DNA of 63,162 bases, filler included, from Reclinomonas americana ATCC 50394 (Eukaryota): assembly GCA_048213135.1 (NCBI GenBank). It is 20 parts of 20 records of this genome, joined end to end, with 100 filler letters (N's around TTAATTAATTAA, not from the genome) between each part and the next. Parts side by side here need not be neighbours in the genome. Positions count along the whole stretch, not along the records: positions 3,121 to 8,326 come from AFZH01023663.1; positions 8,427 to 13,653 come from AFZH01023664.1; positions 13,754 to 16,391 come from AFZH01023665.1; positions 16,492 to 17,698 come from AFZH01023666.1; positions 17,799 to 19,831 come from AFZH01023669.1; positions 19,932 to 21,527 come from AFZH01023670.1; positions 21,628 to 23,286 come from AFZH01023671.1; positions 23,387 to 25,209 come from AFZH01023672.1; 12 more parts are not named here. The stretch is one strand, 5' to 3'. Shown here one piece after another: positions 3,121-53,704 of the stretch. Numbering within the stretch: the first letter of the stretch is position 1; each line of letters starts with the position of its first letter. Made by a program: the position numbers and the translations under genes. A model generated the notes under the pieces. That model saw nothing but the letters and a program-made list of their open reading frames with translations. It had not been told where the DNA came from and searched no databases.

Positions 3121-4323
3121 TGTGTACACGTGACGACCAAACTGTGCGAGTACGTTTCGCATGAGAGCAAGGCAACAAATGACGATTGCAGTGATCAACC
3201 GAGCGCACCACCAAATGCGCCGTCTCCTCGCTCTCCGAGGTTACGTCCCAGTGAAACTTGCGAATGACCACGCCAATCCCCAGCACAGCACCTTCGGTCG
3301 CCTGCCAGGTGGACGTCTCATCGTCGCATATCTATGAACAACCATGAGAAGTCATGGTGGGGACTGCGACGTTTCACGCGCGCACGCACCCTCAGAAACT
3401 CTGTGAAGATGCGTTGCGGTGAGCCGTCCACCAGCAGCTCGATCACAGAGGCCAGCTTGGTCGTGGAGTGCTTGCGAATCAGCGACCACACGTCCGTCAC
3501 GCCGAGAACAATCAGACTCTGTGCCATCAACGCACAGCATGTTGGGATCGGAGCACCTAGCTTTCTTGTGTCATCCATCGCAACTTCTATTAGAGTCGTG
3601 ACAGCATCGTCGACCACTGTGAGTGCATCCGCATTCGCCCTCAGTGAATCGAAAAAGAACCTGTCGCGCCACGATGAGTGTCATCTCTTCCGCACCAAGT
3701 GACGTGCAGAGACTCACCGAAAGCCGTGATCACGCGCAGCGGGATATCGAACATTGTTGACCAGAAAGTCACGCAGACACCTCAACACACGACTGCTGAG
3801 AGCCTGCGACTCGGTCTGTGGCTGCAAGATGGATTCGGAGAGTGCCGAGTGCAGTGTCGACAGGCACGCATCCAACTGCTCCTCTAGTGCCTGCTTCATG
3901 AGTGCCTCCTCTTGCGACACGAGCCACTGGCACCTGCCACACGCACACACAAATCCCAGATGAGCCACCGCACGCTGCCTCACGAGTGCATGAGACCACG
4001 CAACAAATCCTCCTGTCCGTCACCGACTCCTGCAAACGTCTGCGGTCGCTCGTAGCGGCGGACAAAGAGGTACCACAACAATGCATGCGTGGAATCGACA
4101 TCGCGCAAAATCTAATGCCACAGCAGCCATTGTCAGATATCATTCTCCTGCCTCTCTCCTCACACACACACATACGACGCACCTCCAAAACCAGCGAGGG
4201 ACTGTGAGCGAGAGCGCTCAAGAACTCGCCCTCGACAGCACTCGTTCCCGGCAGCTCGGCATTGATCAGCCCATCGCTCTCGCCAGTGGGGGCGAACGAC
4301 TTTACAAATCGAGGCAACGGCAT
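3121..4323 (-). CDS. Hypothetical, probably alpha-helical (HEAT/ARM-like) protein, multi-exon, 3' end lost in gap
   Basis: ATG 4323. Spliced model reads MPLPRFVKSF...LVLE|ILRDVDSTHALLWYLF...EDL|CQWLVSQEEAL...DHGFR|FFFDSLRAN... with frame-consistent GT-AG introns. A later exon reads WQATEGAVLGIGVVIRKF. Confidence 0.55.
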
Positions 4324-4806
4324 GTATCACCGACCACCTCTCGCTCTCCCTTCCGCGCTCCTCCTACGACTACTTCTATACAAACAAAACACACGCGCCA
4401 CACGAGAGGGTGGGCGGATGGGAGCGAGGGACGAGCGTCTGTGTGTGCGTGACAGAGCGTGTGAGTTGACAATGAGGATGACGATCGCCTGTCAGGGACA
4501 GAGGAGCGAGACTCGACGAAAGAGACACAGCGCATGCACGATGACACGGTCACATCGAGCGTGTGTGTTCACGAGTGCGTGTGTTGTCGAAGCTCAAGCA
4601 ATGGCACAAAACACACCCAGCACACACGCACACGCGCACGCGTCCAATCGCGCACGCTCACACACAAACGTTCTCTTTCTCTCACTTGCACACACGCACC
4701 GAGTCTGTCCACCTCGCGCACGCCAACACAAGTGTCGATGGTCGGTCGATCGGGCGCGCGAGGACAATGGGAGCACCGCGTAGACAGTCCGTTTTTGTGC
4801 GTTTCA

Positions 4807-6161: not shown

Positions 6162-8326
6162 TTATCCAGTGGTGGACAGCATTGCGGCTGGTGACCGAGG
6201 CATTGTGAGGGCGGCATTCGGGGTGTATGCACCGGGTGCGGGGAACGTGGCCTTGTCCTTGTTCAAGTCGGGGGACCTCTTCTCCTGCACATTGCAACAA
6301 CGCAATCGTAAGTATCGACACATGACACGCAGTGAGGGAGGGGGAAATAACCAAGACAAACCCTGCCAACCGCGGGGGTAGGTGCCTTGGGTCGCACCGC
6401 CGACATGTCGGGATCGTAGATGGGTCCGGGTGCAGTTGAGGTGACCAACTTGCCACGGTCCGAGTGACCAAACACCGGCCGCGGCGCCGTCTTCTTCACC
6501 GATTCGTCGACCACGTCGTACTTGGGCCCAGGCACCTCGGCGGCACGACGCACTCGCGGGTCCGGTTGCCTTTCGGCGGTACCGAAGCGGTACGCTGGCA
6601 GGCGTGATTTGGTGGGACTGCAGCGACAACAACAAAGGAGAAGCACGCTGAGCAAAGCGGCACAGAGTCGGGAGGTGGCGCGTTTTCTGGTACGAACCTG
6701 GTGTCGGGACTGTACACGGGTCCGGGTGAATCAGGTGTCACCTCCGACATTCTCTGCGACTCTCGTCCAAACGAGAATCGTGGAGCCGACGGCTTGACAA
6801 CATCTGCACGAGAAGAACCCCTCGTGAGACCACAGACTCACTCTCTCTCTCTCTCTCCCTGTGTGCACCACACGCAACTGTCGGCTTCGGGTGCGTATTT
6901 CGGCCCCGGTGTGGTCACTGTGGTTGTCTTGGCCTTGGAGTGCTGTGACACAAGCCGAGTAAGAAAATACGAACAGCAACTCACGCGCATGCGGGGAGTG
7001 CACGCAACTGCAGACTTGCCAAACGAGTACGCCGGCTGTTGCTTCTTGACAACTTCCAGTGGCTTGTCAACATCGTACACGAATCCGGGATGATCCGCCG
7101 TGCCATTGCGTGGCGGTCTGCGTCGGAGGAGTCAGCCTCGGCAACACAGCACCGGATGAGCAGATGGCGGTACGCAACTCGCTCTTTTGCGGTGCGGTGC
7201 CGATTTTCACGCCTGGCGACTTGGGCAGGGTAAGATCGTACGTCGGCTGATACTTGGGGCCTGGCACATCGGCACCCTTGGCCAAGTCGGCCTCGGCAAC
7301 CGACTTGGACTTGGGGAAGGCAGTCGCAGGCGCCGACTTGTACTTGAGCTGTGCGGGATCATGTATCACAGCATGAGAATGTGCGTGCGCACGATTCGCC
7401 ACGAATCGACAACCAGACACTCACATGCTCCGCCGCACTCGTGTCGTAGGCCGGACCGGGTGACTCGCCACCGGCGACGAGGCGCGAGCGTCCACCAGTG
7501 CCGAATTTCCACGTCGGCGACTTGCGAACGCGAGAAATCGTGGTGTAATGCCCCTCGTCGGTGTACGCCCCCGGACCGGGTGTGTACACATTGGTCTCGG
7601 TGGGGCTCGGCGACCGCGTGGCCTTGCCAAAGCTCTTGGCTTGCGGCGTCGGATCGGTGGGCACTCGATCGATTGCGTACTTGGGTCCCGGAGAAATCGA
7701 GCGATGCTGCCCGTCGCCTGCACGAGCAAGGTGAGCAGCGGAGCACCAAACAACACCACGTAGCTGCAACGGAAGCGCAACTGAAACGCGTGGAGCGACC
7801 GAAACCGAACGACGGTGCTGTGCATTCAGCAGCGTGTGGTGAATGAGCGGACGATGACGACAACGACAACAACGACAGCAACACGACGAAACATGACGCC
7901 TTGTGTGGCTGCATTCGATTCTGCGTGTCATACACCGGTCCAGGCGTGAGTCGGCGAGTGCTCTTGGCATCGCTGCTGTGCCGCATGGATGAGCCGAACT
8001 TGGTCGTCGGCGAGCGAGAGCGCGTCGGCTGTGTGTCAGTGAAATGAATGATGAGCATGCCAGTCGTGCAGTGCGCTCACTGAGCTCAGTGCATGTCACG
8101 CAACAGACACGTCGGGATCGTACTGAGGGCCGGGAGTGTCGGGTCCGAGAGGCACCATGTGTGCATCGTGCGGTCGGTGCGGGCGAATGGTGGTGCCCGG
8201 CGGCCGCTTCATGGACTGTGCGCACGCGCGAGAGAGAGGGGGGGGGATATCGAGGAAACCGGAGGCGTGAGTGTGAGTGTTAAGGAGAGAGATAGAGTGC
8301 GTGTGTCGCAACTTCAGAGAGATCAA
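6162..8326 (-). CDS. ODF3-like axonemal protein with SHIPPO (PGPGxY) repeats, many short exons
   Basis: At least ten PGPxY motifs across exons (PGPQYDP, PGPVYD, PGPKYA, PGPGAY, PGPAYD, PGPKYQP, PGPVYSP, PGPKYDV, PGPIYDP), with intervening P-x-[YFW]-x-FG segments. Stop at 6162. Confidence 0.85.
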
Positions 8327-8426
8327 NNNNNNNNNNNNNNNNNNNNNNNNNNNNNNNNNNNNNNNNNNNNTTAATTAATTAANNNNNNNNNNNNNNNNNN
8401 NNNNNNNNNNNNNNNNNNNNNNNNNN

Positions 8427-8916: not shown

Positions 8917-11900
8917 ATGTCGGCGCCACCGCCGTCGTCGTCCTCTGCTGGGTTGCCAGCAGCTGACATGCGGCGACGACTGCGCGAAGGTTTCAAGCGT
9001 GCTGGCATCGAGGACACACTGAAGGTGAGAGACGACACTGCGCGGCGATGATGATCGAGTGCGCGCTCATTGTGGGGTGTTGTACAGGCTCACATACGCA
9101 CCCAGCTCGTGAGACAACTGAAGGAGAATCGAGTGGCTGGTGTGTCTGTGTACGTGTGCTTGCGCGTTGTTGTTGTTGTCTGCTGACGCGATGCACTCGC
9201 AGAGAACCCCATCGAACCGGCCACTGACATTCCCCTTCGCCGACGCGCCATCAACGCTCTTGTGGGTGCGCACATACACATGCTCTCTCCGTTACATAAG
9301 CTTTGTGTGCGTTTCTTACTGAGACCACCACCGCAGCCGACTATCTGCGAGCGTGTGACTACTCGTTTCGTGGACATGCGCGTGATGCAGTGTGGAGGGT
9401 CTCGGCTGATCTTGTCTCTCTGTGTTTTTTTTTTGCGTTGACACATCGCAGGTACTCGGAGTCGGTGTTTGTGCCAGAGGGCGGCTGCGCGCGGCATCCG
9501 CTGAGCTCGTACGACGCGCTGCAGATCCTGCAGATAAGCGATGAGCGCCTGTTGAGAGTTGCGTCTCTGTGTGTGCGTGGTCTCGTCGTGATGTGTGATG
9601 ACTGACGAAGATGCGCAGCACCGGGAGAGTGCCGAGGATTGTGCGCTGGAGCAGATTGTGAGTGTGGTGATCCACACTCGCGGTAACTCGACACGTAGTG
9701 CCAGCGTGCAAACCATGACAGGAGGAGGCTCCTCGTCGACGATTGAGCTGGTGGATGAGCGGCTACGCCGAGTGGATGAAGAGTATTTGGCGGCGGCGGC
9801 ACTGTCGAGTGGGCGGGGGACGCTCGAGGACCGCATGTTGGCGTACCAGCGTGAGTGCGACGAGAGAGCTCGCGCACAGGTGGCGCAAGAACTCGCACGC
9901 ATCCGAGAGCAGGATGTGGCAGCGATGCGAGTGGAGGAAGCCAACAAGTATCGTCATCAGTTGGCGGAGGCGCGCGCCAAGCTGGAGGACGACTACCGTG
10001 TGCGGTTGGAGCGATTGCGCAAGTTGGAGACGGAGGCGGCGGAGAGGTCGACGGAGCGTGATCGTGATGCAGAAGCTCAACTGCACCGCCAGCGCCATCG
10101 AGTGCACGAAGAACTGGAGCGATTGCGAGAACAGAGAGACGATTTGGAGAAGCTGAAAGAGCAGCTGGCTCGTGGCGCTCAGCTCGAGGAAGAGCGTCTG
10201 CGTCGGCGCATGGACGAGGTGCACCGTGTCCTTGCCCGTCCCAACCGCAATTTGTGGCACGCTGCTGACTCTCTCTCTCTCTCTCTCTCTCCACAATCGT
10301 ATTTGTTGTGAGGGCAGGCTGACCAGCGGTGTTCGGAGCTGCAGACACTGAAGGTGACGCTGCGTGAGCAGCTGCACGCGGAGCTGGCCGAGATGCGAGC
10401 GAACATGGAACGCGAGTACCGTTCCAAGATCGAAAAACTGGAGCGCGATCACCAGCTGCTGCAGGAGGAGCGGTTGCGTCTGCTGCAGGATCGACGTGCT
10501 GTCGACACAGTTCGTGAGGACGCAGTCAGAGCACAGCATCTCGAGCAAGACGCACTGGCGGCTCGCACCCGGGCCTCGGAGATCGAGCGAGATCGCGATC
10601 ATGTTGCGTCGCACGCTCCAGTGTTCGGCTTGTTCACTTGCAACTGATGCCAGCCTCCTCTCCCACATTCACAGCTCCTGCAGCAAACCAAGCGACTCGA
10701 AGCCGAGCTGGAAAAGGAGAGACTGCTGCGCGAGGAGTACTCGGGACCAGCTGGTGTCGTCAAGCGGCTGGAGCGGTCTGCGCAGTGTTGTGCCTCCATT
10801 TCACTCTCACTCTTTTGCACTCACTCACACACACACACACTGGCGCCGACGTAGGGAGCTGGAGAATGCTCGCCTCCGAGAGGAAGCCGCCATTTCGTCG
10901 CTAAAGGATCTGGAGTTGCAGAACCGACGACTCAAGGACATTGCGGAGCGTGCCGGCGACGACTTGAAGCACCGATCAGCAGAAGTGGAGGCTCTGGCTG
11001 ACGATCTGCGCAAAATGGCTGCGCACGAAAACACGATTGTCGTACATGCCGAGGCTGCTTTCAAGCGAGAGCGTGTGGAGTGGCAGGATCGCCTCGAGCA
11101 AGAGGTCAGTGTTGGGCAACTGATGTCCGCAATGCGGCTCTCTTACTGTCACCGATGCAGGCGGAGCGTGCTTCACGGCTTGAGCGCTGCTTCGAGGAGG
11201 AGCAGGTGAATTGTCGAACGCTGCGTGGTCAGGTGGAAGACCTGCGGACTCTTTTGGTCAATGCGCAAGAAGGTTTGCTCCTTTTCGGCAATCAGCACAG
11301 ACAAAGCACCTGATTTTCTCTCACGCATCACAGCCCTGGAGGCCGCCATACGGAGCAAACGAGACAACTTTTTCGTTCCAGATGCGGCCTTCCTGACGGC
11401 CAGCATGGGTGGTGCCACGGCGGCTGTCGGACATCGCGGAGGGTTCGTGTGTCCGCAGAGAGAGGCTATCGACCTTCATGCACACAATGCCAACATCTCA
11501 CACCAATTTACTCTACACATCCTGCAGGCACGAGCAACAGCTGCACCAGCCGTTCATGTATGTACCGGAAATGATGATGGCCGGCATGGCACAGCAGCAA
11601 CAGCAGCAGCAACAACTGTTACTGCAGCAACAGCAGCGAATGGTAAGCGCGGGAACATACATCATTGTGGAGTCGAAGTGAAGCACTTACATGGATTTGA
11701 GCAGATGGCGGCAAGTGGCTTCCCTCGGGCAGACTACGTGCGTCAGTCCGTTGACCGCAACAATGTGTATGCTTTTGGCTTGCCCATCCTCACCACAAGT
11801 GTCGCACACAGTACGGAGATTTTAATTTGAATGGTTCTGGCATGCTGGAACTTGGTGATAGCACTGATGGGCGACCGCAGTCGCCACCGTTGCCGCCACT

Positions 11901-13653
11901 ACGGTATGCAACAGAGGCTCCGGTGGGAAGGACCAGAACAGAGCAAGCGGCAGGTGGAAGGGGATCGAGACGCGCAACAGACCGACCGGCCGAGGCAGCA
12001 CCGGGGGGCGCTGGCGCATCGGTGCCCAATACGCCACCGCCGCATGCTCATACACTGCTTGACGGACACAAGCATGTGACTATCGCCGAGCAGCGACTGT
12101 TGAGTTGTTTGGTCGGAGCTTGACTGCAACTGTACCGTAGTGCTGACTTGAGAAAACCATGCACACGACACAGCATGCCGAATCTCAGCCCGATTATTGG
12201 CACAGTGTCGCAGAGTGAGTCCAGTTCCCTCTCCTGTGATTTTTTTATCTCTCTTCACAGTGCTTACTGCGCCGATCTACGCACACAGTGGAGAGCGTAC
12301 GAGTCCACTCGCCGCCGGCGTCGCCGGTGGTCGCCACTGCAGCGGCAGCCTCACCACAGTTGCACCGCCCACCGCCTCTGCAAGCACCGGCTGTACAGAG
12401 CCCGTCGTTGGCATTGCGTCGTGATCCTCCTGCTACTGCGCTGTCGGTTCCTGCTGTGGAGCTGGTCGTCAACACTCCAACCGCACCTGTGCCACCACCA
12501 ACATCGAGCACCACTGCCACGCCGCCAGTGCCGCCGCCCTCCGTACCACCGCCCGTTCCAGTCGATCAAGTAGCACAGATGCAACCAGCAACAGCGCCTG
12601 CCCCCACCCTCGCTCCCGCCCCCGCCCCCGCCCCTGCGCCTGCGCCTGCCACCAACGCCTACCTTCTCTTCCAACAACGTCAACGAGAGGCAGAGGAGAA
12701 GCAAAAACGCGAGCAAGAGGAAAAGGCCGAGAAGGAACGGCAACAGCGGAAGCAGAGAGAGGAGGAGGAGGAGCGACGGCGGCAGGAGGTGGCTCGACGA
12801 GTTGCGTAGTGCGGATGACACGCCGGTTCGATTTTTAATTCGTTGATCTCATTCGCGAAACAGGCTGCTGAGGCAGCCAGGAAGGAGGCGGAAGAGAGGA
12901 GAAAGGCCGAGGAAGAAGAGGAATCCCGCCGGTTGGCGATCGAACAGGAGCGGCAGCGCAAACTGGAGGCGTCTCTCGCCGCTGCGGCCGCCGGTGTCGA
13001 CTCGTCGATTGATGACGATCACAAGTCACCGGTCGTCGCGACCAAGGCGCCGGCACCGCCTGCTACAGCAGTCGTGCACAAGGAGGAAGACTCGATTGAG
13101 GATTCGCCGCCACCGCCGCGCAAGACTGGCTCGATTGCCGACAATCTTTTTGGGCAGTTCGGCATCGGTACAGCTGCGGCAGCCAAGAGCACTCCACCGG
13201 CTGTGACCAAGACCGTAACACCACCACCAACAACAACGGCTACCACAACGCCAAGTGCCCCCGCTACCGCGGTCGAGTCTTCGTCGAGCGAAGACAGTCC
13301 GCCGCCGGCGCGCTCGCGTTGGGCGCAGCAGGGGAGCTCCGGCGGTGGTCCACGAAGTGCAAGTGCTAGCAGTGGCAGTGCTTCAGATGTGCGTGCGTCG
13401 GCACCCACATTGGCCACACCACCAGTGTCGGGAGATAGCGAAAGCGACGGGGATGATGGCGCCGCCGCGGGAGGCACGGCCAAGGGCTTGCCACTGGCAC
13501 GAGCCGCATCGGCGCAGAGTCGAATCGCAGGTGAGAGTAGACGCTGGTTCTCGTGGAAACATTGATGATTCTGAGTTTGTCTGGGGACTATAGGTGGCTC
13601 GGCAGCGTCCATGGATACGCCCGACATGTTCAAGCAGTACATGGAGCGAGCAG
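8917..13653 (+). CDS. OFD1: Oral-facial-digital syndrome 1 centriolar protein homologue (LisH plus coiled coils), 3' end lost in gap
   Basis: The spliced N-terminus MRRRLREGFKRAGIEDTLKAHIRTQLVRQL...AINALVADYLRACDYSYSESVFVPEGG follows the OFD1 TOF/LisH pattern. It continues LEDRMLAYQRECDERARAQVAQELARIRE, long coiled coils, a Pro-rich region and a C-terminal FKQYME motif. Confidence 0.88.
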
Positions 13654-13912: not shown

Positions 13913-13951
<39 letters not shown>

Positions 13952-17878: not shown

Positions 17879-17909
<31 letters not shown>

Positions 17910-39079: not shown

Positions 39080-42000
39080 TCACCTCCTGGCCCCGAATCG
39101 TGTCAGCGGTGGCGGTGGTGTGGCTAGTTGCCGCAACAACGTCGCTTGCGCCTCGGTGAGACCGGTGCAGCCCTCGATCATGAGCTCCGGGCATCGCAAG
39201 TCGCCAGTGCCGGTGTGCCACAGCAGCGTCGAGCAGTACGCACCACCGCGATCCAGCGACGACCGCGACGGCGTTCCGCCTGCACCGGCGGGTGCAGGCG
39301 ACGCGGAGGATCGTGGAGTGCTGCTGTCGGGGAACAGATTGAATTGCACTTGTCGCACCGAAAGCACGCGCGGATCGTCCACCGTGTCGTCGTCGCCGGC
39401 GGCGGGAGCACTGGCACCGGCACCAGCGGCCGACAGATCCTCGGCCGAGGACGAAAGCCAGGACAGGTCGCGCGACGACCGGTCCGGCTGTGCACTCCAC
39501 AGACGCAGCACTGCGTCGGCGCCGCCACTCAGGATGCGCTTGGTGTCGGGCGACAGCGCAATTGAGTACACTGGCACCCGCTGATTGATGCGATGGATCA
39601 GCTCGCCCGTCGAGGCAATCCACAGATTGATCATGCCGTCGGTGCCACACGACGCCACGGCCTTGGAGTCCGGTGCCCAGCACACACACGTCACTGGCGA
39701 AGCGTGTGCACGCTCAATCGTGCGCAGACACTCGCCGCGGTCGGCGTTCCAGATGCGCACCGAGCTGTCGAAACCACCCGTCGCAATGCGGCGTGTGCTC
39801 GGCGAAAACGCCACACTCAAAATCGCCGACGAGTGTCCGTGCACGGCACGCACCAACGAGCCAGCCGCCACATTCCACAATCGCAGCACATTGTCACCAC
39901 TCCCTGTGCGCACAAAAATGAGTGAGCGTGACTCGTAGAACATGATTCGCTCGCGCAGAGATTCGACAAACCCGCAGCGGCAAACTGCCCATCCGCACTC
40001 AGCGCCACGGCGCGGAACCGCTCTGGCCACTCGCCGAACCCACGCAACAACTCGCCCGTGTCCACGTCCCACACGCGCACGCTTCCGTCGAACGAGCACG
40101 ACACAATGAGCGCGCCGTCCGAGGAAAAGGCCACCGAGCGTACCCAGTGCGAATGGCCGCGCAGCACACTGAGGCAGATGCCGCGCTCCGTGTCCCACAA
40201 TCGCACCGTCTTGTCTTCGCTGCCCGACGCAATCACCACCCGGTCGGTGGTGATGGCCACGGCGCGGACGGCTGCCGTGTGGCCACCGAGAAGCAGGATG
40301 CACTGCGCCGTTGCCGCATTCCACACACGCACAGTACAGTCCTCCGAACCCGACACAGCGAGCTTGCCGTCGGTCGAGAAGGCCACACAGCGAATCCAAC
40401 CCGAGTGCTGATCGCGTGCCTGCTCACCCTCAGGTCTCTCATCGACATCCCACGCACGGGCCGAGCGATCCACCGAGCCCGTCATCACCAGGAAGGCGCC
40501 GGAGATGTCGGCGACAGTTGGACTGCCACACGCAACGCCACGCACGGCGGCCGTGTGGCCACGCAACACGCGAATGCACTGACCGCGACACTGGCTCAGC
40601 GGACGAATGTCGTATACTCGCGCGGTGTTGTCGCCACTGCCGGAGACCACGAAGCCGCCGTCGCGAGAGAAGCGCGAGGAAAACACGGCGCCCGAGTGAC
40701 CGTCCAAGTCGAACAGCTTCTCCATGGTCACCGCATCGTACACGGCCGTTCGCCTGCAGTCAGCACGCAGGCAGGTGAGGAAACAATGGAAGACTATGCC
40801 ATAAGCTTCATATACACACCTGGAATCGCCGGCGGCCAAGATCTTGGATCCATCGTTGGCGACGTGCACTGTGCGCACGGGGCCACCATGGCCCTCCAAC
40901 ACGTGCACACACGCCGCGCTCGCCAAGTTCCACAGCCGCACCGACTCGTCGGCACTGCCAGTGACAAGAAGGGTGCCGTCGGGGGAGAAATCCACCGCCA
41001 GCACCTCGTCCTGGTGACCGGCCAGCTCGCTCACTCGATGGCCCGTCTCCACATCAAACACGCGCGCCAGATTGTCGCCGCAGGCCGAGGCCACGAGACG
41101 CGCGTTGGGACTCAGGGCGACACCGTGCACACACTCCGGGTGCGCCGCAATTGTCCGCACGCACTCGCCGGCGACGGTTTTCCACACACGAATCGTACGA
41201 TCGCGACTCCCCGACACGGCCACCTCACCGTCGGCACTCACGGCAACCGAGGTCACCACGAGTGTGTGGCCGGTCATGGTGGACGCGAGCGAGGCAGCAG
41301 CCGTGTTCCATCGTCGCAGTGAGCCGTCGTGTCCACCGGTCAGCAACCACGCCCCGTCGGCGGACGACGCCACACATGTGATCATGGTCGAATGCTGTGA
41401 TGCAAAAATGAAGGGGGGAGAGGCGAGATGAGCTCGCTGTGAAGCGGAACAAGGTGACGATAGAATGCACCTGCAAGAACGGCTGCTTGCCGAGTTGCAC
41501 GCCCTTCATTTGACACCGCCGGAACCGCACATTGGCGAGCCAGGCGCCCGTCAGATCCACATTGCACAGATCCGCATCCTCAAAATTGGCCCCATCCAAC
41601 ATGGCCTGCACCGACGCACACGAGAATCAGTCAGCGGGCGACAAGGCACACACGCGGGGGCACAGCGGCACGCAACATTGGACAGGTTGGCGCCAGCGAT
41701 GCGCACACCCCGCATGTCGGACTTGACCAGCGAAACTCGCGCGGCATTGAGCACGGTAATGGCATTGGCGGCCGCCAGAGCCATGTCGGGTTGGTGACGC
41801 GAGGCGTGCACGATGCCGAGAAGGTGCGTCTCGGCCTGCTGTCTCCTTTGCACCATCTTGCCCAGGAAGCGGACAAAATCCGTCTGTGGTGCCACTGAGG
41901 GTCAGCGACAACGGTAAGAAGAGCAAAGTGATGCACACTACCTCGGCGGTAATGAGGCGAGCACATAGTGGGTGACTCCTCAGTGCAGCATCTCCCGCAA

Positions 42001-42101
42001 TGGACCAGTCGTCGAGAGCACCGAGTGCCTCCTCCGCGGCGAAGAACTACAAATCATGCGTGTGAAAACAAGGACGAGAAGCACAGAAAGTGATCTCCAC
42101 A

Positions 42102-42138
<37 letters not shown>

Positions 42139-44642
42139 TCACTCACTCACTCACTCACTCACTCACTCACTCACTCACTCACTCACTCACTCACGCACGC
42201 ACTCACTCACTCACTCACTCACTCACTCACTCACACTCACTCACTCACTCACACACACACACACCTCCGANNNNNNNNNNNNNNNNNNNNNNNNNNNNNN
42301 NNNNNNNNNNNNNNTTAATTAATTAANNNNNNNNNNNNNNNNNNNNNNNNNNNNNNNNNNNNNNNNNNNNGCACGCACTCACTCACTCACTCACTCACTC
42401 ACTCACTCACACTCACTCACTCACTCACACACACACACACCTCCCGTAGCGACTTGTCGACAAATCGATACCGATACCCATCACCTCCAGCTCGCAGTAA
42501 ACCCTTTGCCCCAAATGCGCAGTGAGGCGCGACAGCATGGGAGGCGAGAAAAAATGATCACATGCGACGCAACAGCATGAACAAGAGTGGTCAGTGGGTC
42601 TCCCGACGAAACCGTCAGCTGGTCTACGTCTCTCCTCAGAATAAAGTATTGGTGCATGCTGAGCATGCGCGAGGCCACTGCTCGGTACAGCTCGAGCAGC
42701 AGCGACGAGGTGACGGCGCCATCGGTCGCCGTGTCCATTCTCCGCGACTGCAACCGCGCGCCAACAATGAGCAAGACAGCGATGAAGAGGGAGACGCGCA
42801 CTTGTGTTACGCACCACCGACGTGATTCCGTGCGAGTACCACAACACAAACTCACGGATGACGTCGTTTCGCTCCACCACCTGCCCTGCATCCCGCGTCA
42901 TGCATTCCAAACGCGGCAGAGCTCGCACCAGCAGCGAAAGATAAAGAGGCTGCGAGAAAAGCGAGATGAGCACGATGTAGCGTGGGCAATTGGGGTCGAA
43001 TCGCTCGCTACTCACCACTTGTGCGAGTTCAGTCAGGCCAGGAATGGAGGCAATAGCATCGCGCAGCTGCCGCCAGTCGACCGAGCGGGAGGCGGAGCCA
43101 CTTCGCTTGATGTACCTGCACGAGAGAAGGGCATGAGCTTTCCAACTCGCCACAGGGGACAGGAGACAGTGGCGCAACTCGCGCAAGAACTCGTCGACTT
43201 GCGTCTCCAAGAATGGCTGCAGGTAGCACTCGCTGACGACCACAGGTTCCGGCACACTGGCTCTCCGGCTCCTCTTGCTGTTTGGCGGAGGAACTGGAGC
43301 ATGGAAAAAGGAAGCCAGTGGCCGACCAAGATGCCGTGCATAGTCCAAGCGACAAGTGACAATCAGCTTGAACTTCCAGTCCTGCATCCGCGCTCACCAC
43401 CTGAGCGATCGAACCAACAGCCATCACGTAGGGAGACACGAACCGCAAAATTCGTTGCATGGAACACCGCCGATGGCAAGCTCTGCAGCTCGTCCAGCCC
43501 GTCAATCACCAACACAATGTGATACTTTTTCTGCAGCCTTGTAATCTGCAGACAACATACTCGACTGATGAGCGACAGCCCCGCGCGAACTCCAACTCGC
43601 AAGTCGCACACCTCACTCGAAGTGAATCCCTCGTGCTCCAGGAACTGCTCCATCCACAAGTGCTCCGGTTCCAGCAACACATCGGGGCGCACCAACAGCG
43701 GCACAGCGTCGCCCTTGCCCCACGTTCTCCACAGATGGGTGACGACGTGCCTCGCAAGCACACTCTTCCCGGAGCCAGCATCGCCCAGCACCAGCAGCAC
43801 CTGCAAATGCCTTCAGCGGGGAGGAGGAGGGGGGCAAAGAGACAACACCACAACTGCACCTTGGAAACCATGTTGGTCGGGCTGAGAAACGCCTGCACCA
43901 GGTCCATCTGCACACACACGATCCATCAATGAGTTGTCTCGCAATCAGTGCGCCACTGTGTGATTCCCACGCAACCGCTGGCACCGGTGCCGATGCCACA
44001 TGTGCCGAGGCCGTCGCCATGACACTGACATGACACACATCGACCACCGCCGGACCCGTATGCAACGCCTCTTGCAGGTGTCGCTCCTGCAAGTGCTGCA
44101 GCTTGACATCCAGCGACACTCGCCCTCGCTGAACAGCACAGCATGAGCTCCAACACTGAGAGCACACACATGCACAAAGAAGGACGCAACGTGTGCCGCA
44201 CTCAATACTGTGCCCTCGGAGGCCTCGGAGAGCTCTATGACCGCGCGCGTGTTTTTGCGTGTGAGTGGACATGTCGGTTCACTCGCTGCACCACGCCTCT
44301 CTCTCGTGTGCGCGTGTGTGTGCGTGTGCGCCTCTCTCCATAACACAATGCACTGACAGAGACACGAGCACACACACGAAAGAACCAGACAGAGAAAAGA
44401 AGCGTAACTGCAGACAATGCAACTGTACACACACACACACACAGAGACAAGCAGCCTCCCATCTCTGTCTTGATGCTCTCACACTGCTGCCGCTGCTCAC
44501 CATACGCACTCGGATGACCACCAATGGCATACGCAGAGCCTCCATTGGTCGTTCCACCGATGAGATGATGCCGCGACGCACCCACTCCACCTCCACCACC
44601 GCCCACCACAGTCGCCTTCTCAGACGAACAGCGGCATCCCAT
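39080..44642 (-). CDS. NLR-like STAND protein: NACHT, pentapeptide repeats and WD40 repeats, with N-terminal MGCRCSS
   Basis: Walker A GDAGSGKS; Walker B VLVIDGLDEL; KLIVTCRLDY; AAANAITVL followed by pentapeptide repeats (DMRGVRIAGANLSNAMLDGANFEDADL); about 14 GH...WD repeats; C-terminal IEGCTGLTEAQATLLRQL. The gene spans the 42271 gap inside an (ACTC)n intron. The exact first exon is inferred. Confidence 0.88.
42104..42440 (+). repeat. (CA)n/(ACTC)n microsatellite flanking an assembly gap, intronic
   Basis: Direct observation on both sides of the gap. Confidence 0.9.
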
Positions 44643-44745: not shown

Positions 44746-47700
44746 ATGAGTGGTGGCCACAGTGGTGGCAATGGTCGCCACCTGTCTGCGATGCAGCAAG
44801 GCGTGCGTTCACTGCACGACTTTGTGGTGTCGTCGACTCGCGATCGCCAACAAGGCGACGAGGTGCTGATTGCCTCAATCAACCTCAGCCACAATCGTCT
44901 GAGCAGCATCGATCCTCTGGTGCGCGTGTGGCCGCGACTGGCCGACTCGCTCACCTCGCTGGTGCTCTCCTCCAATCAGATCGATAGCATGAGCGGTCTG
45001 CAGGGGCTGACTGCACTGAGGGAGCTCAACTTGTCGGGCAATCGAGTTGCGATAACGAGGAGTGGTTGCATCGCTCGCTCGCTTGCTCATTCGTGTGTGT
45101 AGATTGTGCACATTGAGTGTCTGGAGACGCTGTCGTCGTTGCAGACGCTGGTGCTGTCGTTCAATCGCATTCAGAGTCTGGATGGTGTCGAGCAGGCGCC
45201 GTCGCTCGTGTCGCTCGATCTCAAGCGCAACCTGATTGTCAGTGTCGATGAGCTGCAGCGACTGGAGGCACTCACAGTTGCGCGCGGTCGTGAGAGGGAG
45301 AGAGAGAGAGAGAGAGAGAGAGATGGAAAGGCGAGGGGTGTTGCTCATGTGGTGTCGGTGCAGCGGTTGCGTCGACTGTGGTTGCTCGACAATCGCGTGT
45401 GTCGATCGCCCGAGTATTCGACCACGATCCTCGAGTTTGCCCCGCAGCTGTTGTACCTGGACGATGTGAAACTGGTGGCCGAGGCCACCTCTGGTGTGTT
45501 GTTTCCATTCACTTTTTGCGTGCGTCGCAAGCTACGTCTCTCACGATGCGATGCAGAGTCGGGTGCGTCTGGCGTGTTTCCGACCTTGCGTAGCCTCTCG
45601 GAACTCGTGCAGTCGCACGACAGGGCTGATCATGAAGACGGTGGTCGACCACCGGCCGAGCCTCCACCACCGCCACCCGCGACGGCGGCAGCACCACAGC
45701 CACCGCCACCTCCTCCGCCGTTGCACAGGTCTGAATTACGCGCGTGTTTATGTACTTCCGGGTCGTCCTCTCATCGCGTTTGTATGAGGGTGCAGACCGG
45801 CGTCGGCAGACCTGGACGATGACGACGGCAATGTGGATACGTCACGCATCGACCAGGCGCTGCGCCATTACCAAGTGCGAGTGCCGCCCGGTGGTGGCGG
45901 GGCACGCAAACCAGTTGCGCGTGTGTGGCATCGATGTGTTCGACGGCGAGTCGCTCACTGGCATTGTATTGTAACAGCGCTTGCGTCGGAGCACCTCGCC
46001 CGGCAAGCCAGCGAGTTGTGTCACCGTCGACACATATTTTTTTTGTAATACACCGTCGCCACGTTCTCACGCGAGGATGAACACAGGACCAAGTGGCTGG
46101 GCAGCGGCACGGGCGCAGGCGATTTTGGCCGCGGGTGAACAAGAGGCGCTTGGACTGCGGTGCGTCGGTGTTCTCTAGCTTGTACACTGTCATCATTCAC
46201 TTGCACTCACTTGCCTTGTTGCAGGTTCGAGGAGGATGGTGAGCGGGCAGTATTTACGACCGCCATGAAGAATGTGCACGCTGACCTTGCATCGCAGGCG
46301 GAAGCGCGCCGTCGCGAAAGCCCTCGTCGAGACCTTCCAGTTCTGGTGGAAGTCGACCATCATCTGCAGCGGCGTCGGCGGCCGGTCGGGGTGGCAGCAA
46401 TGGTGGTGGCGAAGGACACCATGCGTGCAAGTCGTGCGGTTGCACCTGCAACGGATCCAGTGACTGGCGAGCCGAAGCGGAGCGGTGAGTAGTGTGCTGT
46501 GCGAACACTCCTTAACTATGGATTTCTCACGTGTGGACACCACAGGCTACGCAAGGCACTGGCCGACGTGCGCAGCGAGATTCACGGAACGGCCGATGAA
46601 AAGGACAGCTTAGGCGTGCGACTTCAGCGGTGTGTTTGGAGGAGTGCATGTCGAGTGGAGTAGTGTGTATGTATCGCTGACGTGCTACCCTCCTCCGTCT
46701 GCAGCACGCAAGGCGAGCTAATGGCCGCCACCGAGGACCTGTCACAACGGGAACACGAGCTCGAGGAGGCCGGTAGGCGACGTCGAGAGGCAGAGCGCCG
46801 AGTGGCCGAGAGTGTGCAGACTATTGCGCGCCTGCGTGCCAAGCTGGATGAGCGCAAGGAGGATATCGCGGCGTTGCACGAGGCTCGCGAGCGCCTGGAG
46901 GTGTGCTATCCTGTAACTCTCTTTAGCGTGACGCCTCAACTGACTTGCTGTTGCAGCGCGTCAATCACAAATTGCAGAACGAGGTGGAGCGAGCACAGCA
47001 AGAGACGCGCAGTGCCGAGGCCGAGCTGCGGGACACAAGAGTTGCGCTACTGCTGGTTGACATCTTGGTATGTGTCCGTCGTCTCACACGCCCGTCAGAG
47101 TGACATGGAGCGGCTGGAGGCGCAATTGGAAAAGTACCGAGAGGACTTGGCGCATGCGACAGCCAACGGGTCGGTCAAGGCCAGCGAATGGCAGGCGCGC
47201 TCTATGCAACTGGAGGCTGAGATGGAGGCGCACCGCAAGCTGGAAGTGCAACTGCGCGAGGAGGTGCGACTGCTGCGCGAATCCGCGCGCCATCAGGAAG
47301 AGGAAAACAGGCGTGTGCGGGAAGAACTTTCACAGTTGTGTATGACGAATCGAGGGAGGGAGAGGGAAGGAGAGGAGAACTCACGTATCGGTGGCAAAAC
47401 AGGTTACACGGTGCCGAGATGCAAAATTATCTCGCGCGAGAGAACGAAGCCGTGTTTCGTGCCCGTCGTGCGGCCGAGGAGGAGCTCGCCGAGCGCGATC
47501 GCACCACGCAGGCGGCAGTGGCAGCGCTGCAGGACGATTTTGCTCACCGACTGAAGAGTGTGTCACTACCAGCAGTGTTGCGATGATGAGTGTCGTTCTC
47601 TTACACGTGTCTCTTGTGCAGAACAACAACGCCAGATCAAGGATCTGCAGCAGGCACTGGAAGAATCCATTCGCAACGAGGCTGAACTGAAAACGGTTCG

Positions 47701-49283
47701 TGATGCGTCGTCGCCTTCGCTCGAGTCTCTCTGTTTCGGTAACACTGGGTGGTGGTGGTGTGCGCAGGTGGCGCGTGACAGCATGACGAAAGAGTTGCGA
47801 ACGGCGGCTGTGGCGAATGAACTGCGCGAGCTGGTGCGCGAGCAGAAAGACAAGCTGGGCGAGCTGGTCGTCGCCAAGACCGAGCTCATGCGCAAGCACC
47901 AGGTTGGTCATATCAGGGTGTGGGGTCAATGTCACCCAGCTGCTCATCGTTCAATCGTGTGCCACGCAGGAGGAGATGGCCATGCTCGAGGCCGAGTTGC
48001 GACGTGTCGCCGAGGAAGCACAGGTGCGTGCGCATGTCGCCTTGTCGGTGCTCCTCTTTGAGTCTCACCGCGACGCGCGAGCAGCACGGTCGCACGAATG
48101 AGGGTGAACTGCGTGCCGCCCGCGCCGAACTGCAAGCGCAGCGCACGCTGGCCATGCAGCTGGAGCGGCACATTGAAACGTTGGACGAGAGGTGGAAGGA
48201 AAAGGTGCATACCTCTTTTCGTTTTCTGTTTCCCCTTTTCTGCTGCTCACGTTGTCGGTGCGCAGCTGCACGACATGCAATCGGCGCGTCGCGAGGCCGA
48301 GGCGCGTGCCGACTCACTTCAGGACCGGCTGGCGGTGGCCGAGACCACGGTGGCCGACCGGGAGAGGCTCATAGTCCAGCGCACGCGGGAGTTGGAGGCG
48401 CTGGAGCGGTCGTTGGCTGACAAGGTTGGGAGGGGGGTAGGAAGGGGGAAAGGGGAAAGAAGAGAGAAAGGGGGAGAGGGGGAGGAAGGAGACACCTGTG
48501 CTCCTGTGCGATGCACGCACTGACGTCTGCTATCGAACAGGGCGCGGCGTTGGAGTCACTGCAGTCCGAGTTGCGCGGACGCCTGCAGGCGGTGCAGGAT
48601 GAGCTGGATCAGGAGGTGGAGACGCGGACGAAACTGCGCGAGGAGCTGACACGCAAGGAGGAGCATGAACTGCAATTAGGTGCGCCCGTTTCTGCACGCC
48701 CTTTGCTGTTATCAGTGTGTGCACTCACACAAGTATTGCTGATGCCAACAGAGGAGGAGCTGGAGACGGTGTCTCGCGAACGGCGCGACCTGCAGCGCAA
48801 GTACGATCGGCTGCATGAGGCCTTGGAGGACAAGGGGCGCACACTGAGCCTGCTGGAGCAGGAGGTAAAAGGCCTCCAGCGCGTGTATGAAGAGCGCGAG
48901 CGAGAGGCGCGCGAAAACTTCAAGAGCCAGCTGGCGGAGCAGGAGGCCGCCGTGATGCGTGCTCAGTTGCAACTGCGTGCGGCCGAGGACGAATGTCGTG
49001 CAGCGCGGACGCTGAGTGCGGATCTGGAGCGTCGCGGTGCCGAGCTCGCCGAGTTGCGTGTGCAGGAGAAGGAGAAGGAAGGGAGTGTGCGCTGATGTTT
49101 GTGTTGGGCAGGAACTTGCGGGAGGCTCGCGACGTTGTGGCGCAACAACGCGATGAAATTGTCGTGTTGCTGCGACACAATGACGAGCTGAAGGCGCAGA
49201 TGGAGCAGCGCATGCGGAAGCTGCAGAGTGCACTGAGTGAGCTGCAACTGCCGCTCGTGCCCGGTCCCAGTGGCAGCACGTGA
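44746..49283 (+). CDS. LRRCC1: Leucine-rich-repeat and coiled-coil centriolar protein, LRRCC1/VFL1-like
   Basis: N-terminal SDS22-type LRRs (LTSLVLSSNQIDSMSGLQGLTALRELNLSGNR) with an LRR cap (YSTTILEFAPQLLYLD), then a long multi-exon coiled coil ending MEQRMRKLQSAL...*. Confidence 0.72.
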
Positions 49284-49332: not shown

Positions 49333-49840
49333 ATGTGAGTTCGTTTCCTTCTGTCTATCTCTTCGTGTGGTGCATCTCACACGCTTGAGCTGCTGTTCAT
49401 GTGCCATCACCACCGCCGTCACCACACAGGGACGCCTTCGTTGCGTCTTCTTTTCGTCGCGTGTCCAACTCTTTGATTCTCACTCTTTTTCCTGCCTTCC
49501 CACAGATCCTTTGTTTCGTCTCCATGCTGTGCCACTGAGAGCAATGCGCGCATATACACTCACCTCTTCATCTCCTTCCCTCTCCTCTCGCGGCGAATGG
49601 GCAGTCATCGAGCCGGTATGTCTGCGCGGCACCACAATGTCTGATTTCAGGTGCTGAGTTGTGTGCGTTTTTTCCTTTTAGGTTAGCGGCGGCATGACGT
49701 CGGCACCGGACTGCCACCACGATCACCATGATCACCACCACGATCACCATCACCACCACCACCACCACCACCACCACGGCCATCACCACCACGGCCACCA
49801 TGGCCACCATGGCCATCACGGCCACCACGGCCACTGCTAA
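49333..49840 (+). CDS. Putative small His-rich peptide (62 aa by a micro-exon model; minimal ORF 49694-49840 is 48 aa)
   Basis: The last exon encodes CHHDHHDHHHD(H)11GHHHHGHHGHHGHHGHHGHC* using mixed CAC/CAT codons. Four upstream GT-AG introns give a frame-consistent start. Confidence 0.5.
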
Positions 49841-50766: not shown

Positions 50767-51521
50767 CTCCCGATCGCAACGCGCTGAGTTCGAGAGAGGA
50801 TCTCGAGAGTGGAATGTAGATGGCGCTGCGGTTGGAAAGATGCAGACGCAGCGGCGACTCCTCGTCCACAGCTACTCGGTGATGGAAAGAATGAGAACCT
50901 TGGGAGAGAGAAGAAGCAACAAACTGTGCGCAGGACCTGCCTGATATCAGTAGTAGATGGTGATCATCATGCAGCTGCTGCTGTTTGGATTAGTAAATTT
51001 GTTGTTGTTGTACGTTCGCGATCGTCCTTGTCCTCGTTCAAAACTCGTCCGTTCGCTTGCAGCTGAGAGAGAAGAAAAGATCATGTTGCGTGCATATCTG
51101 CATCTCTTCTCCTTCTTGGGTGCGGTACTCACTCGAATGCATCATGCATGCTTCCTGCGCGCAGGGATTTCGTCACTGTTGCGTCGGAGCTCCAAACTCT
51201 TGTTTGCATGCATGCTCCACTCACTCACTGTGAAACGCATGCACAGATTACTCGTTGCGTCTTGTTGTGCTGAGTGTGCAGAGAGTGTCCCTCGACAACA
51301 ACAACAGCAGAAGCGCTACGATAGCAAGCGCACTCGTGTACTTACCTCCTCGGTTTTTTCTTGCGGTGTTCTTGGGCAGACAATGACCCGGTGAGTGCCG
51401 ACTCTCCACTCAGTGCCTACCNNNNNNNNNNNNNNNNNNNNNNNNNNNNNNNNNNNNNNNNNNNNTTAATTAATTAANNNNNNNNNNNNNNNNNNNNNNN
51501 NNNNNNNNNNNNNNNNNNNNN

Positions 51522-53704
51522 GGCATTTGCAGCGACGATATGGCCACTCGATCGCGTACCGAGCCATCCGCCAACACAATCATGTCGTGTATCCGCGACG
51601 TGACAGGAATCATGTTGGTCTCGTCGCCTCGCCGCACATCGTACGTGCGAATGGTGCGGTCAAACGACGCAGTGACCTGTGTGCACATGCACAGTAAATG
51701 AGGACGCGCATCGCAGTCCCTCCGCCTCGCTCACTCACAATGCTGGCCGAGCCCATCAAAAAGCCGACGGAAACCACCTTTTCTCGATGTCCCATTAACG
51801 TGTGCAACAACTTGTTTCTCCTCGTCGACCACAGCAGCGTGCCACTGCGCAGATCACGGACAGAGCAATGAGGCCCGCGCAGCAGACCAAAAGATTGCGC
51901 ACGATTGCACGCAACTTGCTGTGCGAGGTGGCCGCCACCATGTCGCCCTCTGGTGACACACAACACCGCAAGAGGCCACTGGTGCTCTCCTCGAATCTCG
52001 TTGCCACACAACCTGTGGCACACAGTCAGCGATGGAGGAGGTGCCATTCGGATTCCGCTACGATGCATTTCCTCACGTTCCCTGCTGCTGGAGATGCACA
52101 ACTTTCTGTCCTCGGAGGCTGCGGGAGAGTGAGCGACACGCGACTCAAATCTAAAACCCGATCCCCCACACGCACACCTGACACAATGCTCTCGCCCAGC
52201 GAGTCAAACGTCACGCACATGATACCATCCTCGTGCACCAACTGCAGATGCGCAATGAGAAATGTCGCGAATCCTCAGTGTTGAGCGACGAAAAAAACAC
52301 GCACCAAGTCACCCAGATGATATCTCGGTAACCTCGGCGACTCCTCGGCGGCGGTCCTCGGCTGCTGCAGTGGCGACAAATCCGGGCGCCACTCGGTGCC
52401 GCTGCTGCGACGCAACGACATGCGAGAGAGACTGAAGGTTGCCGGAGTGGACGAAAATGTTGCAGCTGGCTGCAGGGAAGGCGAGCTCACGGCAGAGCTG
52501 CTCTTTGGCGGCAACGATGAAGACTGCCGTGCGGCACTGCCAGCCACCTGCATCGGCACGCCACCTCCGTCGCCACCATCAGCATCCTCGTCCTCACTGA
52601 ACACATCACCTCCGTCGTTGCTCTCGCCATCCGCCTCGCCATCAAAGTCGTCGCTGAATGTCGAGAGGGTGTTCAGCGCTGTCGCGGTGCCAGCGGCGGC
52701 GGCCGACGCGGCGACCAGCGAGGCTGCCGATCTTGCAGTGGCGGCGGTGGTGGTGGTGGTGGTCGTCGTCGTTGCAGTCACAGTGGTGGTGGTGGTGGAG
52801 GAGCTCGAGTCCGTGGCCGACGCTGTGGCACACAACTGTGAGCACTGGGGCCTGCGCGTAATGCACGCACCACCGCACGAAACTGTGCGACTGCGCTCGC
52901 TTCCTTCGCGGCTGTGCGCTGTTGAACGACAGACAGTAAATAATCGTCAGCCCCCCACGATCAGTAGCCACTCGACAAACGCAACGCCTTTCCGTGTTTG
53001 AGCTCCTCCACTTGCTGGTGCAAGGCATTGTTCTCGCGCTGCAGTCGCTGAATGATCTGCTCCAGGTTCCGCACTGTTGACAGCGACGCAGAAGTGAACA
53101 GAAGAAAGAAGGCCCTCGCGAGAGAGAGAGAGATCTACTCACCTTCTTCCCGAGCCGAGGCCACCTCCCGCATCATCGTCTGCCGTTCGTTGGCGTGCTG
53201 GTCGATGGTGGCGTTCAATCGAAGCACATACACCTTGCCGAGATCAATCTCAGCGTAGGCCTCTTGCAGTCTGCTCCCGCATGACAAGTATGTAACAGGA
53301 AGAAAAATCTCTCGGCAAGGCGACAGATGCATACCGTTTCTCCAAGTTGATGACAATCTCCTCATGTTCCTGCGCGGGCGTGAGTGTGTGCGCCTGACAA
53401 CTGTAATGCACAGGCACACGCACCTTTACGAAATGCGATGACACGTATCTTTGGCGCTGTACTCGCGGAGGATGAGGAAGAGACGGAAGAAGAGGAGATG
53501 TCTTCGGCACGCAACTCCATACGAGCGATCGGTGAAGAGGCCGTACAGAAGGCGACGCACACGCTCGACTTGTGCGTTGCGCTGAGGTGCACAAGAGAGA
53601 GTGAGGAAAGAAGGAAGAAGAGGGGTAGAATGAGAGAGGAATACCTGCACAAGTCGCTGCAGCACATTTGCGCGCCATTGGGGTTGGCCGCCACTCGCCT
53701 CCAT
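51522..53704 (-). CDS. ATG16: ATG16L1/TipD-like autophagy protein (ATG5-binding helix, coiled coil, WD40), 3' end lost in gap
   Basis: The N-terminal QWRANVLQRLVQRN resembles the ATG5-interacting helix. Coiled-coil exons follow. The WD40 LLHTLMGHREKVVSVGFLMGSASIVTASFDRTIRTYDVRRG follows the ATG16L1 pattern. Confidence 0.72.

Follow-up and report, generated by a model that had tools for sequence, protein, structure and literature searches.

Human introns include a few dozen whose 5′ splice sites are read by U1 small nuclear RNA (snRNA) in a shifted register. These sites were reportedly described by Roca and Krainer in 2009 (NSMB), and 5′ splice sites with a bulge in the +2/+3 register are said to have been described by Roca et al. 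in 2012. According to the available sections of PMC4856993, the human U1 5′ end reads AUACΨΨACCUG, from A1 to G11, and both the shifted register and the bulged +2/+3 registers are established for rare human sites (see also the available part of the review PMC9311317). A different kind of departure is known from protists. In the available part of a study of Archamoebae (Roy and Bowser, 10.1101/2022.06.08.495308), Entamoeba donors are GUUUGU with U1 ACAAAC, Mastigamoeba (balamuthi) donors are GUGCGC with U1 ACGUAC, and donors with C at +4 occur with a standard U1 in Thecamonas and Mamiellales. Here we describe predicted introns in a stretch of 63,162 bases in 20 contigs (the window) from assembly GCA_048213135.1 of Reclinomonas americana ATCC 50394, where a first-pass annotation had noted many introns beginning with GTTGCG, mostly GTTGCGT. 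These appear to form a second donor class, A|GTTGCGT, whose consensus on both sides of the cut looks like that of the main class moved by one base.

The donors in the window resemble several of the described systems and match none of them in full. The human shifted-register sites are alike in that all pairs between U1 and the 5′ splice site are moved by one position while the cut stays at GU, and the test oligonucleotide ACAGUCAAGUAUA has A before GU, as the GTTGC class does (PMC4856993, available sections). In human, however, this register is a rare exception that was demonstrated by suppressor U1 experiments, whereas GTTGCG here accounts for about 20-27% of predicted introns with its own sharp consensus, and the case for a shift is made from sequence statistics. 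The bulge +2/+3 sites also have an extra U after GU, with the rest of the consensus one base further in, but they keep the normal exon end (G at -1), which the GTTGC class avoids (2/20). The Archamoebae, as far as the available text describes them, likewise have donors other than GURAGU, having T at +3 or C at +4, and a GTGCGY-like main class is present in the window too. In those organisms one atypical consensus occupies nearly all introns in the normal register, and in Thecamonas and Mamiellales, too, a single consensus is read in that register; here there are two classes that occur together in genes and a displacement of one base, and GTTGCG was used by only 18 of 85 to 24 of 88 predicted introns, depending on the gene model.

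The contigs are separated by spacers of 44 N, TTAATTAATTAA and another 44 N (for example, at 3021-3120 and 8327-8426), and features that are adjacent in the window cannot be assumed to be neighbours in the genome. Sixteen contigs (1-54564; G+C content 0.53-0.62) were eukaryote-like, with short introns. They contain genes for Endonuclease V, a pepsin-type protease, NACHT, leucine-rich repeat (LRR), pentapeptide, WD40 and SHIPPO-repeat proteins, and a multi-copy EGF/BNR family; the only Atlas match obtained was 'eukaryotic aspartyl protease'. Introns were predicted using a purpose-written Viterbi gene finder with three-periodic second-order coding statistics learned from the window. Introns had to be 45-115 bases long with GT and AG ends, a bonus was given for CTNAY and YAG, and there was no donor model beyond GT (the donor-agnostic model). 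The gene finder was applied to 10 of the 16 eukaryote-like contigs; the other six, with EGF/BNR-family coding sequence only, were left out because they swamped the training. Low penalties led to over-prediction on both strands, and many donors that fit neither class (26/91 in the donor-agnostic set) are probably errors. A second pass with a two-class donor model (the donor-aware model) was circular by design. Unless noted otherwise, properties of the GTTGC class were determined from 20 introns (18 from the donor-agnostic model and two from the Endonuclease V gene) and compared to 40 introns with G at +5 of the donor (+5G donors).

GTTGCG donors were far more frequent than expected. The first-pass annotation had placed such donors at 24 positions, and all 24 have GTTGCG on the strand it gave, with GTTGCGT at 18. 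The base preceding the donor (-1) at these sites is A at 15, T at 5, C at 3 and G at 1, and CTNAY followed by CAG was visible 55-90 bases downstream. GTTGCGT occurs 37 times in the window compared to 14.48 ± 3.94 expected from 100 dinucleotide shuffles, none of which reached 37. The hexamer GTTGCG was weakly enriched (84 compared to 68.1 ± 8.6; 5 of 100 shuffles reached the observed count). The donor-agnostic model called 15 genes with 85 introns, and 18 of these introns had a GTTGCG donor; the next most common hexamer, GTGTGT, was found in six. Given that GTTGCG makes up 67 of the 5574 GT sites scanned, 1.0 such donor would be expected (binomial P = 1.5e-17), an approximately 18-fold enrichment. 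With the donor-aware model there were 88 introns, 24 of them with GTTGCG. To call this a major class, as had been done, is fair because no other hexamer is as common as GTTGCG, which is the donor of 20-27% of predicted introns without being a majority. A broader class, GTTNHG, that also takes in GTTGTG, GTTGAG and GTTTCG, comprised 25 of 91 introns in the donor-agnostic set and 32 of 94 in the donor-aware set, and +5G donors comprised 40 of 91 to 51 of 94.

The donor-agnostic model recovered 14 of the 24 positions exactly, and the donor at 38287 was additionally fixed by homology. Four others (4004, 7781, 52985 and 53515) were found with the donor-aware model only, and five (17980, 18378, 28876, 44190 and 49440) were outside any coding model; of these, 28876, 44190 and 49440 look like introns in untranslated parts. 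There were also GTTGC donors that the first-pass annotation had not listed, at 1248, 43975, 45914, 49053 and 37991 (GTTGCAT), and three more, at 3584, 8104 and 42573, came from the donor-aware model.

Several junctions are fixed by protein homology or by the period of a protein repeat, and these supported the registers proposed earlier. The Endonuclease V gene (37748-39037, + strand) was read as seven exons encoding 294 residues, and the product aligned end to end with full-length homologues, 12 of which were hand-picked from 120 listed for the alignment. Among the matches listed, the best identity was 65% overall, and the best named matches (Arcella, Capsaspora, dictyostelids, Balamuthia and Selaginella) were 53-61% identical. 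At the GTTGCGT intron at 38287-38354, which follows aag, the junction (EYPSLK|VVEVM) was gap-free against the 12 homologues, several of which read YPSLK-VV. The junction at the GTTGCAT intron at 37991-38054, which follows cga, was also gap-free against the same 12 (EEWSE|EQVRL, compared to WEKEQLEL). The other four introns have ordinary-looking donors (three GTGCGT and one GTGCTC); thus both kinds of donor are found in one gene.

Repeat periods gave similar results. The 22-residue period of the LRRs is maintained (SGNR|IVHI) across the GTTGCGA intron at 45046-45102 (+ strand, after cga), and the five-residue period of the pentapeptide repeats (ANLSN|AMLD(G)) across the GTTGCGT intron at 41606-41676 (- strand, after aat); both introns were called by the donor-agnostic model. 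In the SHIPPO-repeat gene (6162-8212, - strand), five uninterrupted repeats are followed by [FIV]G; the distance to it from the Y of PGPxY was 16 residues in four of these and 18 in the remaining one. Across junctions this distance was exactly 16 at the GTTGCGT intron at 8029-8104 (after tct; donor-aware model), 16 at the GTTTCGT donor at 7892, 17 at the GTTGCGT intron at 6804-6878 (after aca; both models) and 16 across an ordinary GTTCGT junction. This gene has introns at the same place in the repeat (…PDVS|PT and …PDTS|PT) with donors from different classes, GTTGCGT at 8104 and GTTCGTA at 6697. All of the GTTGC introns in both models are GT..AG and join reading frames, with the GT..AG ends imposed by the model.

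The two donor classes differed on the exon side. It had been noted that most GTTGCG donors follow a base other than G and that other donors usually follow G, and this was borne out (G at -1 in 2/20 and 32/40, respectively). The -1 base of the GTTGC class was A in 14 introns, T in 4 and G in 2, and that of the +5G donors was G in 32, T in 6, C in 2 and A in none (Fisher's test, P = 2e-9 for A and 2e-7 for G). A makes up 19% of exon bases (P = 1e-6 for the excess of A at -1) and 12% of third codon positions, and it was the -1 base at 7 of 11 phase-0 GTTGC introns, where the coding model would if anything disfavour it. When the exon ends of the GTTGC class were scored against the main-class exon profile, the log-likelihood was -74.3 with the profile shifted by one base, -126.0 in the same register and -85.0 for exon background. 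As a control, we compared donors that all have T at +3. In the donor-agnostic set, GTTNG followed G in 7 of 9 introns, and GTTNHG followed G in 3 of 25 and A in 16 of 25 (P = 6.5e-4); in the donor-aware set, G was at -1 in 11 of 11 GTTNG donors and in 3 of 32 GTTNHG donors.

The main-class donors in 1-54564 are GT-G-(T/C)-G-(T/C) preceded by AG; A is rare at +3 and at +4 (5/40 each), and the +4 base is a pyrimidine in 29 of 40. Compared to this pattern, A|GTTGCGT differs by one letter, and the whole GTTGC consensus is best described as the main consensus, AG|GTGCGT, displaced by one base. The apparent rule is that exons end in G when the core G is at +5 and in A when it is at +6. The first-pass annotation had described the motif as GTGCGT with one extra T; a better description seems to be AG|GTGCGT in which T replaces the first G of the intron and the cut lies one base further upstream. 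Because the exon-side consensus is displaced along with the intron side, the data favour a shifted U1 register and argue against a bulged T. Of the two geometries suggested earlier, a shifted or a bulged register, the exon-side statistics thus support the former, and the low frequency of G at -1 (2/20) speaks against the latter at the U1 step.

Apart from their donors, the GTTGCG(T) introns appear to be ordinary short U2-type GT-AG introns. Their median length was 65 nucleotides compared to 67 for introns with +5G donors, and the two sets had in common a [GA]CAG acceptor and branch-like motifs at equal distance. CTNAY was found in 19 of 20 GTTGC introns with its A 12-34 nucleotides from the 3′ end, in part by construction, as the model gave a bonus for this motif; the forms were CTCAT, CTCAC, CTGAT, CTGAC and CTTAC and one CTAAT. 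An interior 8-mer was shared by 8 of 190 pairs of GTTGC introns and by 57 of 780 pairs of other introns, and the two kinds of donor were intermixed within genes. The common lengths, acceptors and branch motifs, without a shared interior, indicate an ordinary U2-type rather than a U12-type or a recent mobile family. U12-type introns, with the donor consensus RTATCCTT and branch consensus TCCTTAAC, are similar in being a second donor class with a sharp consensus that coexists with the main class in the same genes. They differ in that the GTTGC introns have the main-class branch and acceptor; with donors of GTTGCG[TCA] and the U12 consensus absent, a U12-type assignment was ruled out. Two organisms, each with its own donor class, were ruled out because both classes occur in the Endonuclease V gene. 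An intron with TT..N ends, cut one base downstream, was also rejected: its last base would vary (the first base of the following exon is A in 6, C in 6, G in 6 and T in 2).

We favour, with a probability of roughly 0.55, the interpretation that these are genuine U2-type GT-AG introns and that the second donor class, A|GTTGCGT (broadly A|GTT-N-H-G-Y), is read by U1 in a register shifted by one base. The usual exon-final G would become the first base of the intron, T would replace the normal first G, and the TGCGT core would lie one base deeper. U1 would most likely pair with these donors one base out of register relative to the cut. In human U1 numbering, the predicted pairs would be A(-1):U10 and G(+1):C9, followed by a U(+2)/C8 mismatch and U(+3)-U(+7) with A7-A3, and the catalytic spliceosome would later place the cut at GU. 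That U1 reads the displaced donors, the form of U1 in this organism and the handling of these donors by U6 are what we infer from the sequence. From the pattern of the main-class donors, U1 would seem to pair through a sequence other than the textbook ACUUAC, as reported for Mastigamoeba, and the pyrimidine preference at +4 (29/40) would fit a G at the corresponding position of U1. In duplex energies computed without pseudouridine parameters, the best predicted duplex of CGA|GUUGCGUG with a Mastigamoeba-type U1 5′ end (ACGUAC) was in the shifted register, at -6.4 kcal/mol; the comparison donors GTGCGT and GTGTGT gave -13.0 and -9.7 kcal/mol, respectively.

Several considerations weigh against this interpretation. 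A textbook U1 5′ end gives almost no shifted duplex (-1.8 kcal/mol), and the model therefore needs a non-standard U1; the pairing partner is assumed. CAG|GUUGCGUG with a bulged U binds better (-10.7 compared to -6.4 kcal/mol), yet G is avoided at -1; hence the pattern needs more than U1 affinity to explain it. At -2 the 20 introns have G in 9, C in 6 and A in 5, where a human-type U1, with its G11, would call for C. The GCG core varies far less than the main-class core, a uniformity that a dedicated reader would explain equally well, and pairing with U6 would still need a bulge, a shift or a variant. The introns themselves came from our own unvalidated gene finder and about 45 kb of sequence, and the bonus for branch and acceptor and the imposed GT..AG ends partly build in the similarity of the 3′ ends. 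Finally, an in-phase GTNNG alternative is present within 30 nucleotides at 9 of 26 GTTGC donors, with none at the other 17. Searches of Rfam yielded no snRNA in the window: at the gathering threshold only a tRNA was found, and at E values up to 5 on 1-54564 there were microRNA look-alikes driven by microsatellites and no snRNA.

A second U1 could also account for much of what we observed, and variant snRNAs had been put forward in the first-pass annotation as well. A dedicated variant U1, perhaps with a matching U6, would have a 5′ end fully complementary to A|GUUGCGU, so that two U1 species would serve the two donor classes; in effect, the variant would differ from the main U1 in having A opposite U(+2). 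Such a U1 would fit the uniformity of the GTTGC class (exactly GTTGCGT in 15 of 20 introns and GTTGCG in 19 of 20), set against the degenerate main class, and the avoidance of G at -1 despite the greater stability of the bulged G(-1) duplex on a single U1. There is precedent for co-evolution of donors and U1 in Entamoeba and Mastigamoeba, and Physarum has both standard and modified U1 candidates (10.1101/2022.06.08.495308, available part). Overall, a variant U1 would explain the avoidance of G at -1, the G at -2 and the uniform core at least as well as the shifted register does. Because it also predicts the same A at -1, the present data cannot separate the two. However, topic searches returned, among their top-ranked matches, no organism described as having its major-type introns split between two U1 species, and we regard a variant U1 as a tentative and rather doubtful explanation. 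The broader picture that it would imply seems about as unlikely: two parallel systems for reading 5′ splice sites within the major spliceosome, with an ordinary U1 for AG|GTNNGY and a second U1 (perhaps with its matching U6) for A|GUUGCGU in a quarter or more of introns. If true, labour would be divided here in a way that has so far been known only for the major and minor spliceosomes.

The other explanations that we considered are much less probable. With a bulged T, U1 and U6 would pair normally from -2 to +2, the T at +2 or +3 would bulge out, and GCGT would serve as +3 to +6. This geometry is known from the human +2/+3 bulge sites (68 predicted and 54 after curation; PMC4856993, Table 3, in the part available), agrees with the predicted duplex for CAG|GUUGCGUG (-10.7 kcal/mol) and may still describe a later U6 step. 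It predicts G at -1 and A at -2, however, and G at -1 was observed in 2 of 20 introns compared to 32 of 40 in the main class, and the same-register exon profile was the worst fit (log-likelihood -126.0); we think it quite improbable. It is still harder to attribute the class to an artefact, in which boundaries are mis-set, nearby ordinary donors are used or GTTGCG is simply a frequent word. The 9 of 26 sites with an in-phase GTNNG alternative within 30 nucleotides could be read in this way, as could the four first-pass sites at which the donor-agnostic model took a neighbouring GT instead, but 17 of 26 sites have no such alternative, junctions are fixed by homology or repeat period, and GTTGCG was enriched 18-fold among donors chosen without a donor model. 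Equally remote, in our judgment, is a relic of introner elements, the mobile introns of Micromonas, Aureococcus and dinoflagellates, with GTTGCGT left as the conserved terminus of an element that had spread and has since decayed. Introners are similar in being many short introns with a common terminal motif, and a sharp seven-base end after a fixed base could reflect a terminal motif combined with an insertion-site preference. Against this, the GTTGC introns form no sequence family and have no shared interior (8-mers in 8 of 190 pairs, no more than in other introns), and their lengths and 3′ signals are the same as those of other introns. Flanking direct repeats were not noticed in the printed contexts, in which no systematic search was made.

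We looked for published descriptions and for relatives of this organism. No description of a large donor class displaced by one base was found among the top-ranked matches of motif-string and topic searches; the motif-string matches listed were to primers and unrelated sequences only. The available part of the Acanthamoeba genome paper does not mention a donor consensus. A metagenome scan using an Endonuclease V exon identified 34 loci, the best of which were 69% and 62% identical. None of these loci had more than four copies of GTTGCGT, and the highest densities were single copies on contigs of approximately 1-2.5 kb. A similar scan using an exon of an uncharacterised gene without a Pfam match found no relative. 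It appears that the collections searched contain no close relative of the organism.

The other GTTGC introns of the window, given here with the last three exon bases in lower case, differed in how they were called. Those found with both models and having the donor GTTGCGT are at 6943-7008 (-, gca), 7118-7178 (-, cga), 9558-9618 (+, aga), 10603-10674 (+, cat), 12801-12863 (+, cga), 27578-27641 (-, tga), 43908-43975 (-, gcg), 49053-49111 (+, cga) and 51845-51915 (-, caa). Both models also found introns with GTTGCGC at 43116-43178 (-, cga) in the NACHT gene, 45277-45363 (+, aca), 45914-45977 (+, cca) and 47041-47098 (+, aga). The donor-agnostic model called GTTGCGT introns at 1248-1329 (+, gat) and 29220-29285 (-, tct), the latter of which was replaced in the donor-aware model. 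Three introns from the donor-aware model had another GT chosen by the donor-agnostic model: GTTGCGT at 3934-4004 (-, ttt), where the choice was an in-phase GT 21 nucleotides downstream, GTTGCGC at 7718-7781 (-, tca), with a GT 6 nucleotides upstream, and GTTGCGT at 52919-52985 (-, ggc), with a GT 9 nucleotides downstream. Found in the donor-aware model only were GTTGCGA at 3519-3584 (-, gaa), GTTGCGT at 42504-42573 (-, gct), which has a weak AAG acceptor, and GTTGCGT at 53457-53515 (-, gga). A GTTGCGT intron at 18272-18378 (-, tca) follows a signal-peptide exon; its in-frame join was made by eye, and the model called no gene on this contig. The candidate GTTGCGT donor at 17974-17980 (-, tct) belongs to an intron that runs off the end of the contig, and the candidate GTTGCGC donor at 28871-28876 (-, caa) is outside the coding models. 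The candidate GTTGCGT donor at 44184-44190 (-, cac) is probably 5′ untranslated, and later models chose another donor. The candidate GTTGCGT intron at 49440-49505 (+, ttc), outside the coding call, has a TCTCAC branch-like motif and CAG. Some introns contain (GA)n, (CT)n or (GT)n microsatellites (e.g., at 6804-6878, 45277-45363, 17800-17980 and 28780-28875), and these were the source of spurious microRNA look-alikes in Rfam at loose thresholds.

Several other genes were examined. Ten contigs (16492-35498) encode a multi-copy family of large secreted proteins in which BNR/Sortilin-like repeats precede teneurin-type EGF repeats, and copies of this family have GTTGCGT introns (27641, 29285 and 18378). 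Two EGF-family contigs compared as paralogues had no DNA similarity that was useful for delimiting introns. The BNR part was 55-59% identical to metagenome-assembled genome (MAG) records labelled Verrucomicrobia and Bifidobacterium, and a scan of genome contigs with the BNR/EGF protein identified seven loci, all in MAG records labelled bacterial. The one locus inspected (L001) has uninterrupted open reading frames of 1330 and 2309 amino acids. Bacterial-labelled matches with giant uninterrupted reading frames, together with introns in the copies in the window, raise the possibility of gene transfer between bacteria and a eukaryote for this family.

The gene at 44746-49283 (+ strand) is very intron-dense: the donor-aware model gives it 20 exons over 4.5 kb. 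It encodes N-terminal 22-residue LRRs and a long coiled coil and may resemble centrosomal LRR/coiled-coil proteins. Together with the SHIPPO gene, it suggests a flagellate, and the organism is probably an intron-dense flagellate eukaryote. At 39080-44171 (- strand), two adjacent genes were called, one with a NACHT P-loop (GDAGSGKS) and the other with pentapeptide repeats followed by approximately 14 WD40 repeats; these may be a single STAND-type gene split by the model. The region at 434-3020 (+ strand), which contains the GTTGCGT intron at 1248, had a weak match to a fungal-type Zn2Cys6 cluster (E = 3e-4) and long His/Gln-rich tracts. A tRNA gene was identified at 53933-54004 (+ strand) by Rfam (53.3 bits), and ARAGORN made no call on 53800-54150. 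The last four contigs (54665-63162) have a G+C content of 0.67-0.70 and long uninterrupted open reading frames for an enoyl-CoA hydratase, two AMP-binding (acyl-CoA) ligases, an ABC ATPase, a periplasmic binding protein and two Liv-type permeases, with the ABC transporter genes of the branched-chain amino-acid type. They contain four GTTGCG and no GTTGCGT. These contigs look bacterial, which indicates that the assembly mixes a eukaryote with a bacterium.

In such a mixed assembly, the GTTGCGT signature could be used to flag hidden eukaryotic contigs. In organisms of this kind, a large share of the genes would be modelled wrongly by gene finders whose training used GTRNGT-type donors. Non-canonical U1 registers are rare exceptions in human, whereas here a displaced register would be a routine, selected mark of about a quarter of introns. 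If this is true, the organism would be a natural example, at scale, of the uncoupling of U1 recognition of the 5′ splice site from the choice of the bond that is cleaved, and it would add a third kind of donor/snRNA evolution to the cases of co-evolution in Archamoebae. The predicted introns suggest that the splicing machinery of this organism may routinely read intron starts in two registers.

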